DNA of 52,286 bases from Patescibacteria group bacterium (GTDB lineage Bacteria; Patescibacteriota; Patescibacteriia; UBA9570; JAHJKD01). Of this stretch, positions 1 to 16,894 are shown one piece after another. Location of the stretch: contig JBDRCS010000047.1 of the NCBI GenBank assembly GCA_043821615.1, positions 1 through 52,286 on the forward strand. Direction: 5' to 3'. How positions within the stretch are numbered: position 1 is the stretch's first letter; each line of letters opens with the position of its first letter. The notes beneath the pieces are model-generated. The model saw only the letters and a program-made list of their open reading frames with translations. It did no database searches and had not been told where the DNA came from. Position numbers and translations under genes: made by a program.

Positions 1-1290
1 CAGTTTAAAGAATTGCAATTGCCAGTGCCTCGCCTTTACGCATTAAATGTTAGAAACGACAACAGTGAGTATACAAATGGTTCTGGTTACAATAAAGATT
101 GTTATTTAATTTTTGTAAGTGATCACAATGAAAATTGTCTATATTCATATTCAATCTTCGAGTGTAAAGATTGCACCGACATGCTAAATTCCACAAATTG
201 TGAATCTTCTTATTGGTGCTCTGGTTGTAATAATTGTTTTGATTGTATGAATTTATTAGATTGTTCCAATTGTCACGAATCAAAATTTAGCGTTGACTGT
301 AAAGGCTGTTCCAATTGTTGGGGTTGTATAGGGCTTCGAAATAAAGAATATCATTTCCTAAATCGAGAAATGACTCGGGAACAATATCTAAAACGCATTC
401 AATATATCACTGATGAAGATAAACAAAAGTTTGAAAATCTCAAGTTAAAACATAACTACGTTTACATGCATGGTCTTAAGAACGAAAACAGCACTGGTGA
501 TTACATTGATAACTGTAAAGATTGTGTGTCCTGCTACGATTCTCATTTTTTAGAAAATTCTAAATATATTATTCATGGTAATAAAGCTAAAGATGCTCAT
601 GATGGTTATATGATAGGCGACAACACAGAATTAATGTACGAAACAATCGGTTCATTAGAATTAAATAATAGCAAATTTAATAATTTTTTAATGACCAGTA
701 GTAATATGGAATATTGTGATTCCTGCCATTCATCAAAAAACATGTTTGGCTGTATTTCAATTAGAAATAATGAGTTCTGCATTCTAAATAAACAATATGA
801 AGAGGAGGAATTTTATAAATTAAAAGATAAGATTATTGAGCACATGAAAAAGACAGGTGAGTACGGACAATTTTGGCCTATTCAAAATTCTCCATTCTGC
901 TACAACGAAACTGCAGCTCAGGATAATTATCCCATAGAAAAAAAAGATGCGGTTGCTCAGGAGTATCCCTGGAAAGAAGACGAAGAAAAAGTGATTGATA
1001 AAAGCCTTCCTGTGTGCGAAGAATGCGGCTCAAATTTTAACATCACCAAATCCGAGAAAAAGTTTTACGAAATAAAAGACCTGCCTGATCCGGTCAAATG
1101 CTTCAAATGCCGCCACCGGGAAAGATTATCACAAAAAAATCCCCGCAATCTTTGGCACCGCCAATGCGACTGCACAAAGCCAAATCATGATCATACCGGT
1201 AGATGCTCTAATGAATTTGATTCTACTTTTTCACCGGAAAGAAAAGAATTAGTTTATTGCGATAAATGCTATAAATCCGAGATCTATTAA
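1..1290 (+). CDS. Cysteine-rich multi-zinc-ribbon protein, paralog 1 of 5 (5' end cut by window edge)
   Basis: Frame 1 is open from base 1, so the TTG at 13 in the track is not the real start. The product aligns with the internal and C-terminal parts of the four full-length paralogs: NKDCYL, GCIGLRNKEY, ILNKQYEEEEF, EHMKKTGEYGQFWP, and the terminal CEECG...CFKCRH...YCDKCYKSEIY. Confidence 0.8.
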   Translation, partial: QFKELQLPVPRLYALNVRNDNSEYTNGSGYNKDCYLIFVSDHNENCLYSYSIFECKDCTDMLNSTNCESSYWCSGCNNCFDCMNLLDCSNCHESKFSVDCKGCSNCWGCIGLRNKEYHFLNREMTREQYLKRIQYITDEDKQKFENLKLKHNYVYMHGLKNENSTGDYIDNCKDCVSCYDSHFLENSKYIIHGNKAKDAHDGYMIGDNTELMYETIGSLELNNSKFNNFLMTSSNMEYCDSCHSSKNMFGCISIRNNEFCILNKQYEEEEFYKLKDKIIEHMKKTGEYGQFWPIQNSPFCYNETAAQDNYPIEKKDAVAQEYPWKEDEEKVIDKSLPVCEECGSNFNITKSEKKFYEIKDLPDPVKCFKCRHRERLSQKNPRNLWHRQCDCTKPNHDHTGRCSNEFDSTFSPERKELVYCDKCYKSEIY

Positions 1291-1340
1291 CTTGTCTATT
1301 GGGGTGTGTTATAATATCTGTCATACACTAAATTAACACA

Positions 1341-1943
1341 ATGACAGAAAAAATATTTAATGCTGACGATTATAACAAGTATGAGGAGGGAAACAGAATA
1401 ATATTGTCCAGCGGCATTGAGCGCATTTCCGTGATGGTTGATCGGGTCCAGGATTTTTCCGGACTGGAAGGCAAGACCATTGGCCTGCATGCTGATTTTG
1501 GCGGCGAATCCATGGCCGATTTTTTAGGTTTAATTTTCAATCCCCGGCGGGTGGAGAAATTGCTGGAAGCGCAAATCGATAAATTCAGAAAGGTATTTGG
1601 CAAGCTTCCCGACCATTTGGATTCCCATCGCTATCTCCACTTGTTTCCCTTTGTCCTCCCGGTTTTTATCAGGGCCTGCCGAAAACACAAGATTTCCAAT
1701 TTAAGGATGAGTCGGCACGGGGTTGTGAAGATTAAAAACTTAAAATCATTCATCATCCATTTTATGGTGAAGACTAGTTATCTATTTTGCAGGAAAAGAC
1801 TGGAAGGTCTGGTTTTTTGCGATTATTTCCTTTCCCTTGATTGGTACGATAAAATTGATTTCAAGCTTCCGGACGGGGTGATTAGCGTCATTTATCATCC
1901 TGAAAATGATATTAAACTTTTAAGACAGCTTCAAAAAAACTAA
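1341..1943 (+). CDS. YdjC/ChbG-like carbohydrate deacetylase family protein (tentative)
   Basis: 200-aa ORF. N-terminal IFNADDY and central PDHLDSHRYLHLFP resemble the NADDFG and DxHxHxH motifs of the YdjC family. It sits in a glycosylation gene cluster. Confidence 0.45.
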   Translation: MTEKIFNADDYNKYEEGNRIILSSGIERISVMVDRVQDFSGLEGKTIGLHADFGGESMADFLGLIFNPRRVEKLLEAQIDKFRKVFGKLPDHLDSHRYLHLFPFVLPVFIRACRKHKISNLRMSRHGVVKIKNLKSFIIHFMVKTSYLFCRKRLEGLVFCDYFLSLDWYDKIDFKLPDGVISVIYHPENDIKLLRQLQKN

Positions 1944-1944
1944 A

Positions 1945-15070: not shown

Positions 15071-15111
15071 AGAGTGATGTAAAAAATTAGTTTACATCAC
15101 TCTTTTTTTTC
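15071..15111 (+). terminator. Intrinsic terminator
   Basis: AGAGTGATGTAAA-aaattag-TTTACATCACTCT followed by T8. Confidence 0.75.
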
Positions 15112-15164
15112 TGCGCTAACTATAGCGCCATTTTTGCTTGCCTAGGAAAAACGTAAAATCCAAT

Positions 15165-15199
15165 TTGACCAAAAATTTGTATATCTATAGGATTAATTA
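15165..15199 (+). promoter_or_regulatory. Promoter abutting the start codon (predicted leaderless)
   Basis: TTGACC (15165-15170), 17-nt spacer, TAGGAT (15188-15193), then 6 nt to the ATG at 15200. Confidence 0.4.
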
Positions 15200-16894
15200 A
15201 TGGTTACAAACCAATGCCAACAATGCCAAAAAACATTTAAGATCTCAGAATCAGATCAAGAGCTTTATAATAGATTAGAACTACCTTTGCCAACTTATTG
15301 TCCAGATTGTCGTTGTCAGCGCAGAATGGCAGTACGCAACGAAAAACATATGTATCCGACCAAATGTGAAATGTGCCAAAAAGACATAGTGAGCTTGTAT
15401 TCACCAAACCTGCCTGCCGGCAAGGCAGGTAAAAAACTCACTGTTTATTGTAATGATTGCTGGTTTGCAGATAAATGGGAGGCGCAAGACTACGCGAGAG
15501 AATATAAAGAGGGTCAATCATTTTTCAAACAATTTCAGCAACTTCAAAAGTCTATTCCTCGGCCAAATGTCATGAAGGCTGGCGGTAATATTGAAAACAG
15601 TGATTACTGTGCTTATATTGGCGATGCTAAGAATTGTTATTTAGTATACGGATCAATCCATGTTGAGGATTGTTATTACGGCAACCCCTATTATTGCAAG
15701 AATTGTGTTGATTCTCTTCTCATTCGCGATTGTGAACTTTGTTATGAATGTGTGACCTCAGAACATCTTTTTAATTGTCTTTATTGCCAAGATTGTTTTG
15801 ATTCCAATAATCTAATGTTTTGTTATGATTGCAAGGGCTGTACTGAGTGTATAGGTTGTACAAACCTAAGAAATAATCAATATAATATTTTTAATAAACA
15901 ATATACAAAAGAGGAGTATGAAAAAGAGAAAGCCAGAATAAATTTATGCAATCCGGAAAGTTACAAAAGAGTTAATAGTAATTTTGAAAAACAAAAAATA
16001 AAATCCATCAGAAAATATATGATTGGAGTTAAGAATGAAAACGTCACGGGAAATTACATTAATGAATCAAAAAGTTCTCATTTTTGTTTTGATGTAAAAA
16101 GAGTTGATCACACAAATTATTCTTCGCAAGTGATTGATTTGAAAGATTGTCTAGATAATAATTATACGGAAGAGAATGAATTATGTATTGATTATATTGG
16201 TTCTTGGAAAAATAATCGTTGTCATTATTCTAATACCTGTTATCAATGTAATGATGTAATGTATTCTGAGCTTTGTTATTCATCAAAAAATCTTTTTGGT
16301 TGTGTGAGTTTGAAAAATAAAGAATATTGCATTTTAAATAAACAATACTCTCCGGAAGAATATAAAAAACTGAAAAATAAAATAATGGAAGACATGAAGA
16401 AAGCCGGGGATTGGGGAGAATTTTTCCCAATAAAGAAATCAATTTTTGCATATAATGAGACGGTCGCAAATGAATATTTTCCAGAAAAACAAGAAACAGT
16501 CTTAAGTAAAGGCTGGAGATGGCATGAAGATAAAGAAAAAGAGAAACAGCTTCAAACTTGTAGAATTCCACAAAGCATTGATAAAATCCCGGATTCTATT
16601 ATTCATGAATTTCTTATTTGCTCTCAATGTGGAGAAAATTACAAAATAATAAAAGCAGAACTAGAGTTTTATAGGCAACAGAAATTACCAATTCCTAAAA
16701 TTTGTAACATCTGCCGACATAAAAATAGGATGAAATTAAGGACGCCTAGAGCCCTGTGGCACCGCCAATGCATGTGTACTCAAAAAGATCATAGTCATGA
16801 TGGTAGGTGTTCTAATGAATTCGAAACCGCCTACAACCCTAATGAAAAAGAGATGGTCTATTGCGAAGACTGTTATAATAAGGAAATATATTGA
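15200..16894 (+). CDS. Cysteine-rich multi-zinc-ribbon protein, paralog 5
   Basis: 564-aa ORF with the family architecture. It carries a 7-aa insertion (NLPAGKAGKK) encoded by a GC-rich palindrome. Confidence 0.85.
   Translation: MVTNQCQQCQKTFKISESDQELYNRLELPLPTYCPDCRCQRRMAVRNEKHMYPTKCEMCQKDIVSLYSPNLPAGKAGKKLTVYCNDCWFADKWEAQDYAREYKEGQSFFKQFQQLQKSIPRPNVMKAGGNIENSDYCAYIGDAKNCYLVYGSIHVEDCYYGNPYYCKNCVDSLLIRDCELCYECVTSEHLFNCLYCQDCFDSNNLMFCYDCKGCTECIGCTNLRNNQYNIFNKQYTKEEYEKEKARINLCNPESYKRVNSNFEKQKIKSIRKYMIGVKNENVTGNYINESKSSHFCFDVKRVDHTNYSSQVIDLKDCLDNNYTEENELCIDYIGSWKNNRCHYSNTCYQCNDVMYSELCYSSKNLFGCVSLKNKEYCILNKQYSPEEYKKLKNKIMEDMKKAGDWGEFFPIKKSIFAYNETVANEYFPEKQETVLSKGWRWHEDKEKEKQLQTCRIPQSIDKIPDSIIHEFLICSQCGENYKIIKAELEFYRQQKLPIPKICNICRHKNRMKLRTPRALWHRQCMCTQKDHSHDGRCSNEFETAYNPNEKEMVYCEDCYNKEIY

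Follow-up and report, generated by a model that had tools for sequence, protein, structure and literature searches.

What do the cysteine-rich proteins encoded repeatedly at this locus do, and with which partner do they act? The window, a stretch of 52,286 nucleotides from a Patescibacteria genome, was scanned in six frames with the family HMM, and five family copies and no further ones were detected. Copy 1 (1..1290, + strand; 429 aa; 469 bits) is partial, cut at the contig start, and spans family-profile positions 104-560, so that solenoid 2, the C-terminal zinc module, and the greater part of solenoid 1 are retained. Copy 2 (4418..6103, + strand; 561 aa; GenBank hypothetical protein ABH835_02640; 737 bits) is preceded by a promoter-like site at 4382-4410, and 1 nt separates its stop codon from the start of copy 3 (6105..7793, + strand; 562 aa; ABH835_02645; 863 bits), which was used as the reference for residue numbering. 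Copy 4 (8155..9780, + strand; 541 aa; ABH835_02655; 680 bits) and copy 5 (15200..16894, + strand; 564 aa; ABH835_02675; 728 bits) follow, the latter being the richest in Cys. The first-pass annotation had described these five + strand ORFs as proteins of 540-565 aa with dozens of Cys (under 10%) and neither a signal peptide nor a TM segment. All five were found at these positions; the four full-length products measured 541-564 aa, and copies 1 to 5 contained 32, 40, 36, 42, and 45 Cys, respectively, or 6.4-8.0% of residues. The top 19-residue Kyte-Doolittle mean was at most 1.04, showing no TM segment in the five proteins, and no signal-peptide h-region was present at the N-termini of family proteins (MKTKQC..., MHKNQC...). 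The sequence motifs quoted in that annotation were likewise present in the family alignment.

The layout of the protein is a zinc module, two beta-solenoids in succession, and a second zinc module, as seen in the full-length AF2 model of copy 3 (pLDDT 88.4, pTM 0.89). In copy 3, the N-terminal module (6105..6389, + strand; aa 1-95) contains sites 1 and 2, and the C-terminal module (7497..7793 including the stop codon, + strand; aa 465-562) contains sites 3 and 4. The two modules had been proposed to be duplicates, and their homology was confirmed by hhalign (prob 99.6%, E 1.6e-24, 81 columns). Each consists of two four-ligand sites, a treble-clef CxxC-x24-CxxC (zf_Tbcl) followed by a ribbon of the CxxC-x17-CxxC type. 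Site 1 is C6-x2-C9...C34-x2-C37, of treble-clef type, and site 2 is C56-x2-C59-x17-C77-x2-C80; site 3 is C472-x2-C475...C500-x2-C503, and site 4 is C522-x-C524...C535...C553-x2-C556, with an HxH insert. The Pfam model zf_Tbcl (PF13451) matched the C-terminal module of copy 4 with 32.5 bits against a cutoff of 24, the sole copy above the gathering score, and the matches to zf_Tbcl_2 (PF23477; 13.8-17.6 bits, cutoff 27) and TIGR04272 (14.8 bits, cutoff 36) stayed under their cutoffs. Proteins of these three types share with the family modules the treble-clef signature CxxC...(D/E)xxFY...PxxCxxCR followed by a second CxxC...CxxC, and the x17 spacing of the TIGR04272 type is exact in the N-terminal module (C59 to C77). 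However, zf_Tbcl-type proteins stand alone with ~40-130 aa, whereas in the family two tandem modules flank 370 residues of unrelated solenoid, and the fourth site differs by its CxC and HxH insert. The best BFVD fold matches were phage 'zinc-ribbon domain' proteins (E 0.015, prob 1.0). [quoted passage not shown] Judging from sequence, binding of Zn at the protein termini is a well-founded prediction. The earlier statement that the proteins belong to no nameable family therefore has to be limited to the central two-thirds, since the zinc modules match zf_Tbcl; no characterised family was found by profile searches over the whole length, and the central two-thirds gave no match in Pfam, NCBIfam, or PADLOC and no significant PDB match, by sequence or fold.

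The centre had been read as two copies of one unit, and hhalign agreed (prob 99.8%, E 3.1e-30, 124 columns). Beta-solenoid 1 of copy 3 (6441..6779, + strand; aa 113-225) comprises ~8 coils of 12 residues with the consensus xxxxS(K/E)(D/N)Cx(Y/D)(C/S)x and ends in a conserved DCxGCxNC cap followed by LRNxxYxFxNKQY, and the homologous beta-solenoid 2 (6891..7238, + strand; aa 263-378) ends in FGCxGLxxxxYCILNKQY. The solenoid 1 equivalent of copy 5, modelled alone, showed a core pLDDT of 89-95, 4-residue strands, and 2-residue turns. The autocorrelation of Cys and small residues had a period of 3 (0.5-0.7 out to lag 30), and that of hydrophobic residues peaked at lag 12 (0.39) with -0.06 at lag 18. 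By register, Cys accounted for 37.6% in one and 0.3% in the other two, the Cys register consisting overall of 73% small residues. The small position at every third residue corresponds to the inward-pointing ladder of a beta-solenoid with 12-residue coils, and the proteins are rich in Cys because this position is often occupied by Cys, not because of metal ligation.

Weak fold resemblances have to be read against this periodicity. Of the 29 weak Foldseek matches of the full-length model, 24 were left-handed beta-helix acyltransferases (GlmU, PerB, LpxA/D, PglD; E 1.3-9), which would make the family hexapeptide-repeat enzymes. This identity is very improbable and was largely refuted: no match was significant (TM-scores 0.05-0.2), the coil period is 12 and not 18, Pfam Hexapep was not matched, the centre has neither a conserved His nor another conserved catalytic residue, and the isolated solenoid domain matches right-handed solenoids. 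Pentapeptide-repeat (MfpA/Qnr) and CARP-domain (CAP, TBCC, RP2) proteins were the best, albeit weak, PDB neighbours of the isolated solenoid (E 0.11-0.7). They are small cytoplasmic solenoids that work through their surfaces, by protein binding or DNA mimicry, and the family solenoid differs from them in its period of 12 with a period-3 ladder of small residues rather than 5/20 or ~18, in TM-scores of 0.15-0.26, and in having no Pfam match. The coil consensus of the Tenebrio molitor antifreeze protein is TCTxSxxCxxAx, 12 residues long; as in the family, an inward small residue (Cys, Ser, Ala) occurs every third position, and each coil has two short strands. The entry 1l1i had the top sequence identity (19%) among solenoid fold matches, with a TMt of 0.33 and a non-significant Foldseek E of 1.3. 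The antifreeze protein, however, is a secreted, disulphide-bonded ice binder of 84 aa, whereas the family solenoids have no signal peptide, have partly conserved Cys, and lie within a 560-aa zinc protein.

The five copies are 38-45% identical to each other. A recount of the last 42 codons of 6105-7793 and 8155-9780 returned the 18 synonymous differences and 1 non-synonymous difference counted earlier by hand, from which purifying selection had been claimed. The full-length codon comparison of all 10 pairs was in line with this claim, giving a pN of 0.36-0.42 against a saturated pS of 0.71-0.83. Orthologues in two related genomes were intact, with gene order retained and a pN of 0.10-0.24 against saturated pS. 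Copy 1 has a 70% identical orthologue in locus L002, and copy 2 has orthologues in L002 (80%) and L022 (64%); no close orthologue of copy 4 was found in L002. The five genes are thus intact, anciently diverged paralogues under strong purifying selection, and phylum-wide the architecture is uniform and slow-evolving (dN/dS at most 0.1). Identity between paralogues was 60% in the C-terminal module, 48% in the N-terminal module, and 34-35% in the solenoids, whereas between orthologues it was 91% in the solenoids and 71% in the C-terminal module.

These comparisons bear on the proposal of the first-pass annotation that the proteins bind metal (Zn or Fe-S). As to Zn, it is well founded for the termini with their four sites, and it does not apply to most central Cys, which vary in number and follow the every-third register. 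In its wider form, with the family as a metal store, a metal buffer, or a thiol redox buffer whose Cys hold Zn, Cu, or Fe-S or form a redox sink, the idea is improbable. Across 351 copies, 24-50 Cys occur per protein, the four zinc sites are canonical, and the cap Cys, CxxCxxC in solenoid 1 (C203 0.92, C206 0.89, C209 1.0) and C354/C363 in solenoid 2, are conserved and could bind further metal or Fe-S; in 5 loci, CutA1 is encoded within ~95 bp (median) of a family copy. However, only ~16-21 Cys are conserved, namely 16 near-invariant in the four CxxC...CxxC sites plus those of the caps, and the central ones (9-34 per protein) are individually poorly conserved (mostly 0.3-0.7) and replaceable by Ser, Thr, Ala, or Gly. 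Orthologue-specific conservation sits on the solenoid faces rather than on the Cys ladder, and storage accounts for neither the diversification of paralogues nor the linkage to an ATPase gene described below.

Patescibacteria are ultra-small, host-dependent bacteria. The family is a large, uncharacterised group of soluble ~560-aa proteins found throughout this phylum; clustering at 50% identity gave at least 2,401 clusters at E<=1e-30, all being full-length matches of 523-602 aa. The expansion noted earlier for these soluble, signal-less proteins is accordingly real, and it is a phylum-wide phenomenon rather than a local five-copy case. In 81 loci, 293 copies were found in tandem arrays, nearly all on one strand, with up to 11 per 22 kb; tandem arraying was seen in most sampled genomes, and the copy number ranged from 1 to 11 or more. 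The reported interleaving with glycosylation and surface-protein genes proved specific to this contig, as no such gene was among the 25 commonest neighbour clusters.

Beyond the coordinates covered by the first-pass annotation, a VirD4/TrwB/HerA-type P-loop ATPase of 732 aa is encoded at 18319..20517 on the - strand, opposite to the family; the 1.4 kb up to copy 5 contain a gene for a secreted protein. It carries an N-terminal DUF8128 where the membrane anchor would be, and no TM segment was present in 34 homologues. Its nearest solved relatives are TrwB, DotL, and HerA. The ATPase occurred in 34 of 82 family-centred loci at a median gap of 74 bp, and in locus L003 the order was family/ATPase/family/ATPase/family with abutting ORFs. 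Conversely, a family copy was present in 59 of 80 ATPase-centred loci and in 31 of the 36 that extended over at least 15 kb (the other 5 had none), although these counts are not independent because the sampled loci come from related lineages. The median distance to the nearest copy was 64 bp; of the 59 loci, 55 had this copy on the strand of the ATPase and 42 had it upstream. Chance proximity is raised by tiny genomes and a multicopy family, and by our own rough estimate ~10% would be expected against the 86% observed. When three distant homologues of the ATPase were picked by hand, a family copy lay within 10 kb of just one, and many family copies are not neighbours of the ATPase, such as those between grpE and dnaK. 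The conserved neighbour of the family is thus an unanchored VirD4/TrwB-type hexameric ATPase, not glycosylation or surface genes.

The grpE-dnaK copies suggest a role in proteostasis, with the family acting as co-chaperones or holdases that bind substrates Zn-dependently together with DnaK/GrpE or ClpB, comparable to the DnaJ zinc-finger or Hsp33. About 14 loci show the order GrpE-FAM(1-4)-PaaX(-)-DnaK-T4CP-FAM, and a few kb separate ClpB from the family and ATPase genes both in the window and in Kerfeldbacteria locus L085. Such a role is quite improbable, however, as the grpE-dnaK loci come from closely related genomes and form one synteny block, profile searches matched neither DnaJ nor Hsp33 nor another chaperone model, and most arrays are not adjacent to chaperone genes.

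The reading that we favor, tentatively and at somewhat less than even odds, is that the family is a set of clients or adaptors of an orphan coupling-protein-like motor, the link to the ATPase being gene adjacency only. For the VirD4-like genes of Patescibacteria, few of which lie near virB4, exaptation 'cannot be ruled out' (PMC12102498); on the other side, the T4CP homologue that 'Ca. Southlakia epibionticum' carries was reported as non-essential for epibiotic growth (PMC12102498). The basic Zn modules and a genome-specific C-terminal tail, formed by the last ~6 residues of the C-terminal module, would be the end by which all copies dock to the same partner, because the modules are the most conserved parts among paralogues and the tail differs by genome. 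Candidates for this partner are the ATPase and nucleic acid, singly or together. The diverse solenoid faces would direct the individual copies to different targets, since they are 91% conserved in orthologues and only ~34% in paralogues. The motor might export the family proteins, unfold or load them, or use them as specificity subunits.

Alternatively, the proteins could be accessories in nucleic-acid handling whose Zn modules bind DNA or RNA, with the ATPase as a DNA translocase like FtsK, HerA, TrwB, or CedD; this is rather unlikely, and so is the associated role of the pair in DNA scavenging or uptake, or in defence, in nucleotide-auxotrophic cells. Both modules are basic (N-terminal, mean pI 8.1, net +2.7; C-terminal, mean pI 8.6, net +4.8) with a conserved CRxxRRxxxRNER helix, and the DNA mimic MfpA is among the weak solenoid fold matches (E 0.14), but the solenoids are just mildly acidic (-2 to -3), unlike DNA mimics. 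DNA scavenging has been supposed for CPR bacteria (PMC6744442). The ATPase matched TrwB_AAD_bind, CedD (E 2e-7), and HerA/DndH/mad8 models, yet all matches to defence or DNA-import models were far under the cut-offs of those models. Furthermore, nuclease, helicase, and methylase domains are absent from the family, its PADLOC search was empty, and 5-12 paralogues are left unaccounted for.

A special case of the client or adaptor reading is that the family proteins are translocated effectors. The ATPase would select them by their C-terminal module or tail and pass them to a T4SS, an unlikely scheme, and it is equally unlikely that the relaxase-less Patescibacteria T4SS delivers them into the host bacterium, each solenoid having a different host target. 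Genes of the Bartonella Bep and Xanthomonas X-Tfe effectors adjoin virD4, and the products share a C-terminal VirD4-binding signal. Like these Bep and X-Tfe (XVIPCD) arrays, the family forms signal-less tandem paralogues, directly upstream of a T4CP homologue, in which the C-terminal part is conserved and another part variable. The arrays also turn over, as seen in copy 4 and in the range of copy number. Patescibacteria T4SS are mostly without relaxases and thought to be repurposed; however, of 5,713 VirD4-like genes in 2,918 Patescibacteria genomes, just 148 were near virB4 (PMC12102498). Against translocation, which is hypothetical here, the ATPase is soluble, a T4SS channel gene was not found among frequent neighbours or annotated window genes, and four tightly folded zinc sites would impede passage. 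In addition, the family has no toxin or enzyme domain, its uniform, slow-evolving architecture is untypical of effectors, and some copies lie inside housekeeping operons.

The genome specificity of the tail was itself a modest effect. Identity over the last 6 aa was 0.58-0.67 within a locus against 0.47-0.54 between loci, matched for overall identity, and a control segment showed little or no within-locus excess. In array L017, the sharing of the tail was caused by gene conversion; in the window, L125, and L001, the tail peptide was kept despite synonymous differences.

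A profile hidden Markov model (HMM) of the family, built from 72 homologues, detected exactly five copies in a six-frame scan of the 52-kb window, with scores of 469-863 bits. These are the same five plus-strand open reading frames that the first-pass annotation had proposed by eye, at 1-1290 (copy 1, truncated by the contig start), 4418-6103 (copy 2), 6105-7793 (copy 3), 8155-9780 (copy 4), and 15200-16894 (copy 5). The four full-length copies (ABH835_02640, 02645, 02655, and 02675) are all labelled 'hypothetical protein' in GenBank. The proteins contain 32-45 Cys residues each (6.4-8.0%), and no hydrophobic stretch was found in any of the five (19-residue Kyte-Doolittle mean of at most 1.04), the N-termini being polar. 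The copies are 38-45% identical to one another, and pS was saturated (0.71-0.83) versus a pN of 0.36-0.42 in all ten copy pairs. Recounting over the 42 codons at the 3' end of copies 3 and 4 reproduced the earlier hand count of 18 synonymous differences and 1 non-synonymous difference; recent gene conversion behind the alike C-termini in the window was ruled out by a pS of 0.86 over these codons. Two other Patescibacteria MAGs carry intact orthologues of copies 2 and 3 with the order preserved; identities are 80% and 82% in one and 64% and 63% in the other. The orthologues' pN of 0.10-0.24 with saturated pS indicates a dN/dS of about 0.1 or less, and pseudogenisation in relatives was rejected because the orthologues in loci L002 and L022 are intact. 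The family is real and was accurately described at the first reading; no profile matched the whole length, dN/dS was nowhere near 1, and none of the copies in relatives was disrupted.

Each full-length protein comprises two beta-solenoids (S1 and S2) enclosed by two terminal zinc modules. The duplication of the terminal modules, noticed beforehand by eye, was confirmed by HMM-HMM comparison, in which the N-module (residues 1-95, copy 3 numbering) matched the C-module (residues 465-562) with a probability of 99.6% (E 1.6e-24). Each module carries two four-ligand sites. In the N-module these are site 1 (C6/C9/C34/C37) and site 2 (C56/C59/C77/C80), the latter with the exact CxxC-x17-CxxC spacing (C56-x2-C59-x17-C77-x2-C80); in the C-module they are site 3 (C472/C475/C500/C503) and site 4 (C522(/C524)/C535/C553/C556), which has the variant form C522-x-C524...C535-x17-C553-x2-C556. 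The 16 Cys residues of the sites are 93-100% conserved in the 72 homologues. The first site type is recognised by Pfam as zf_Tbcl (PF13451), a treble-clef zinc domain, in a match spanning only about 40 residues per module rather than the whole protein. Residues 448-485 of copy 4 scored 32.5 bits (E 8.3e-8; gathering score 24) and copy 1 scored 23.8 bits, slightly under the 24-bit threshold; the remaining copies were not matched individually, though the N- and C-modules are all homologous by hhalign at the E-value of 1.6e-24. The CxxC-x17-CxxC spacing of the N-module is shared with TIGR04272 and PF23477 (zf_Tbcl_2), but the family scored under both curated cutoffs (best 14.8 against 36 bits and best 17.6 against 27 bits, respectively). 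[quoted passage not shown] From these measurements and the zf_Tbcl match, zinc binding at all four sites can be inferred on good grounds.

The centre was likewise found to be doubled, as had been proposed, and S1 (residues 96-262) matched S2 (residues 263-420) with a probability of 99.8% (E 3.1e-30). The number of central Cys residues ranged from 9 to 34 per protein (median 21) among 351 distinct full-length copies. When the S1 positions were sorted into the three residue registers, the Cys share was 37.6% in one register and 0.3% in the remaining two, and small residues (C/S/T/A/G) made up 73% of the Cys register versus about 15% outside it. The autocorrelation of Cys frequency was 0.5-0.7 at all multiples of three up to lag 30, and that of hydrophobicity was maximal at lag 12 (0.39), with no peak at lags 6 or 18. 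The resulting 12-residue consensus, xxxxS(K/E)(D/N)Cx(Y/D)(C/S)x, is repeated about eight times, and the solenoid is closed by a conserved DCxGCxNC cap, the motif LRNxxYxFxNKQY, and a helix. The full-length AlphaFold2 model from the 72-sequence alignment had a pLDDT of 88.4 and a pTM of 0.89, with about 77 in the solenoids. When S1 of copy 5 was modelled alone, the core reached a pLDDT of 89-95 with four-residue strands and two-residue turns, so that its predicted fold is a tight beta-solenoid.

The variability, register bias, and periodicity of the Cys residues, together with the models, indicate that most of the Cys richness comes from the inward ladder of small residues in the two solenoids and not from a set of metal ligands. 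The earlier interpretation of the whole as Cys-rich metal-binding proteins was right in part. Exceptions to the ladder are the cap Cys residues, which are conserved in S1 (C194 0.82, C203 0.92, C206 0.89, and C209 1.0) and in S2 (C354 0.82 and C363 0.88) and could be a candidate fifth and sixth metal site, or an Fe-S site; the C203-x2-C206-x2-C209 motif at the S1 cap (0.89-1.0) matched no Fe-S profile in Pfam or NCBIfam. A rival explanation, that the family serves as a metal or redox buffer, draws on the four zinc sites and the cap candidates, and against it stands the variable number (9 to 34) of the central Cys residues.

The central 370 residues had no match in Pfam, NCBIfam, or PADLOC; two family copies were searched in PADLOC as such, also with no match. 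PHROGs gave a single weak match (phrog_15341, function unknown, E 5.6e-4), and the PDB sequence profile search gave solely a LIM-domain match at chance level (E 0.11). Foldseek returned no match at E<=1e-3 for the full model against PDB and BFVD or for the isolated solenoid against PDB. The weak Foldseek matches were all beta-solenoids: left-handed hexapeptide acyltransferases for the full model and, for the isolated domain, the right-handed CARP domains, MfpA (E 0.14, TM 0.16), pectate-lyase-like helices, and the Tenebrio antifreeze protein 1l1i (rank 37, E 1.3, 19% identity). An acyltransferase-like enzyme, suggested by the first of these, is the weakest of the five rival explanations. A hexapeptide LbH acyltransferase was rejected, since there was no Pfam match at E<=1, the period is 12 and not 18, the Foldseek E was at least 1.3, and neither a conserved central His nor catalytic residues were found. 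The pentapeptide repeat (A(D/N)LXX, 20-residue coil) also gave no Pfam match, the family period being 3/12. The nearest structural analogy is the Tenebrio antifreeze protein, which has a 12-residue coil, TCTxSxxCxxAx, with every third residue small as in the family. The solenoids share with this beetle type of beta-helix the 12-residue coil and the inward ladder of small residues and Cys; however, the beetle protein is secreted and disulphide-bonded, whereas the family has no signal peptide and the structural match is not significant (E 1.3). It is an analogue and not a demonstrated relative. A zinc-capped, 12-residue, Cys-laddered cytoplasmic solenoid with no significant PDB match is of structural interest in itself.

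A word-indexed search found at least 6,495 relatives. The best 120 of them were almost all full length, and each named one was from Patescibacteria, including Peregrini-, Gracili-, Staskawicz-, Uhr-, Falkow-, Ryan-, Portnoy-, and Brennerbacteria and others. An exhaustive search of 1.84 billion representatives gave 2,401 clusters at E<=1e-30; the 150 clusters listed were 523-602 residues long, nearly all with a single end-to-end match. A scan of one genome per species gave at least 596 loci, and the 80 that were kept are all from Patescibacteria MAGs. These 80 loci and L001 contain 293 copies, up to 11 in 22 kb and almost all on the same strand, and on a Staskawiczbacteria contig of 738 kb at least 12 copies lie within the 64 kb covered, taking up about 20 kb, or roughly 2.8% of the contig as a lower bound. 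Much of bacterial diversity belongs to the Patescibacteria (CPR), host-dependent organisms whose genomes measure about 0.6-1 Mb. As the copies are kept intact under strong purifying selection at such a genomic cost, the family must do something central. To our knowledge, the molecules behind the host dependence are mostly unknown. A mobile-element or phage origin was rejected, because the family is essentially absent from IMG/VR viral contigs (a single 68-aa fragment at the end of one contig) and the arrays lie among housekeeping genes.

Under table 11, family open reading frames appeared split, into about 320 and about 95 aa, in some loci (L045, L098, L101, L102, L106-L108, L118, L134, L160, and L164). 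Recoding of UGA (code 25) in lineages of the Gracilibacteria type is the probable cause, rather than pseudogenisation. The GC content of window positions 1-20000 swings from 30.5% at 8-10 kb, where copy 4 lies, to 42-44% at 2-4 kb and 10-14 kb, and the nearest relative, L002, lacks a close orthologue of copy 4, a finding suggestive of array turnover.

Clustering of 1,061 neighbouring open reading frames from 82 family loci revealed one outstanding partner, an FtsK/HerA/VirD4-type ATPase, which occurred in 34 of the 82 loci, the median distance to a family copy being 74 bp. Among the frequent neighbour clusters, only this one has a member in the window (18319-20517, minus strand). In locus L003 the order is family/ATPase/family/ATPase/family, with reading frames that abut or nearly so (gaps of 0-80 bp). 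The reciprocal test started from orthologues of the window ATPase: of 80 metagenome loci around them, 59 contained the family, as did 31 of the 36 that were at least 15 kb long. The nearest copy lay at a median of 64 bp, on the same strand in 55 of the 59 and upstream in 42, and the whole 10-kb ATPase flank was typically filled by a run of family copies. Chance proximity was estimated at roughly 10%, given the copy numbers. The linkage is tight in both directions, but not obligate, as no family copy lay near two of the three distant ATPase homologues picked by hand.

The ATPase matches DUF87, TrwB_AAD_bind, and TraG-D_C, and the nearest solved structures are TrwB, DotL, and HerA. It carries an N-terminal DUF8128 where coupling proteins have a membrane anchor and, unlike these membrane-anchored proteins, showed no transmembrane segment in any of 34 homologues. 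PADLOC gave only weak, generic P-loop matches (HerA/mad8/DndH). A further match of the ATPase, to phrog_5156 (function unknown, E 3e-76), shows that phage or prophage sequences also encode close relatives. Literature searches on the family, DUF8128, and PF13451 found no prior description. Taken singly, the parts are familiar (zinc ribbons, a beta-solenoid, and a VirD4-type P-loop ATPase), but the whole family, its solenoid type, and its association with an orphan type IV coupling protein (T4CP) lie outside every characterised family or system compared.

A 2025 survey counted 5,713 VirD4 homologues in 2,918 Patescibacteria genomes, only 148 of these T4CPs near virB4, and left their role open, stating that exaptation 'cannot be ruled out' (PMC12102498). 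The Cys-rich family is mentioned neither there nor in the rest of the searchable literature. The reciprocal linkage makes it a candidate partner for the orphan VirD4-like motors of Patescibacteria and renders the open question testable. Effector export of the family proteins is one rival explanation: like T4CP clients, the family adjoins a VirD4-type gene in 34 of the 82 family-centred and 31 of the 36 long ATPase-centred loci. Against it, the ATPase lacks a membrane anchor, and no channel genes of a type IV secretion system (T4SS) were found among the frequent neighbours or the annotated window genes.

The regions of the protein differ in how they vary. Among the window paralogues, identity was highest in the C-module (60%) and N-module (48%) and lowest in the solenoids (34-35%); between copy 3 and its orthologue the ranking was reversed, with 91% in the solenoids and 71% in the C-module. 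The zinc modules are basic (pI 8.1 and 8.6) and the solenoids with the following linker acidic; the basic modules speak for a further rival explanation, in which the family handles nucleic acids, and the only mild acidity of the solenoids speaks against it. The last six or so residues seem to be genome-specific (...KKEIY in the window; ...NNEVA, ...QQEVI, ...LETVY, and ...LDCIE elsewhere). Sharing of the tail was 0.58-0.67 within a locus versus 0.47-0.54 between loci at matched overall identity, a modest effect, and a control segment just upstream showed little or no within-locus excess. The common tail is kept despite synonymous differences in the window, L125, and L001. In L017 (8549-13677), three deeply diverged paralogues with different inserts at zinc site 4 are nucleotide-identical over the last 54 nt bar one substitution, which indicates local gene conversion.

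Taken together, the zinc modules and tail would form a common docking end and the solenoid surfaces the paralogue-specific part. With the operon-like arrays that include the ATPase, this suggests, tentatively, that the family may be a client or adaptor set of an orphan, soluble motor of the coupling-protein type. A bolder and more doubtful proposal is an undescribed two-part cytoplasmic machine, in which a soluble hexameric VirD4-type motor would work with a genome-encoded library of zinc-capped double-solenoid proteins. There would be 5 to 12 or more of these, and each would present a conserved recognition surface of its own. If so, the library could be the set of substrates or effectors that the relaxase-less Patescibacteria T4SS is missing or, alternatively, a new kind of target-selecting system for host-derived macromolecules. 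Such a machine would also account for the retention of about two orphan T4CP genes in these minimal genomes and for the share of coding capacity, roughly 2-3%, that goes to a single family.

The glycosylation and surface-gene context noted by the first-pass annotation was not conserved in 81 other loci; the YdjC, TMEM260-like, GT2, PEPCK, and secreted beta-helix/fn3 genes that interleave the window copies do not recur there. The order GrpE-FAM(1-4)-PaaX(-)-DnaK-T4CP-FAM (FAM, family copy) is common to about 14 loci of the Paceibacteria type, and T4CP...ClpB-PrmC-RF1 is common to the window and the Kerfeldbacteria locus L085. In the window, ClpB, PrmC, and RF1 lie downstream of the ATPase at 22845-25424 (plus strand) and 26564-28526 (minus strand) in the order of L085, a possible clue to the lineage of the window and a possible sign that a T4CP-family-ClpB neighbourhood is conserved. 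These surroundings are suggestive of a chaperone role, another rival explanation, but each arrangement may be a single inherited synteny block. The former order is complete or near-complete in L004, L007, L009, L010, L012, L013, L016, L018, L020, L029, L032, L036, and L067; the PaaX-like regulator is on the minus strand there, and the family thus sits inside a heat-shock operon.

In the 361-nt gap between copies 3 and 4, a terminator-like hairpin (7886-7919) lies just before a plus-strand tRNA-Leu(TAA) gene (7941-8014), which places the pair of copies 2 and 3 and copy 4 in separate transcription units. A full-length ATP-dependent PEP carboxykinase (9888-11402, plus strand, 685 bits) is encoded within the array of this reduced Patescibacteria genome. 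Three plus-strand genes for signal-peptide proteins (11467-13257, 13268-15052, and 16981-18312) look like a separate cell-surface family. Two of the products combine a right-handed Beta_helix with fn3 and share the Lys-rich C-terminal motif ...YKIKIR[AG]KKKV..WYKGKWSK.K.F; the third is BPL_N/GATase-like with fn3 and has a similar basic C-terminus. In five loci, CutA1 is encoded close to a family copy (within about 95 bp, median); in L001 (6658-6963) the gene is located between the family copies and the ATPase. Further along the window (34169-36462, plus strand), a gene for a Bro-N domain protein precedes one for a 433-aa protein with a TIR domain at its C-terminus; the two may form a defence or conflict module with no relation to the family.
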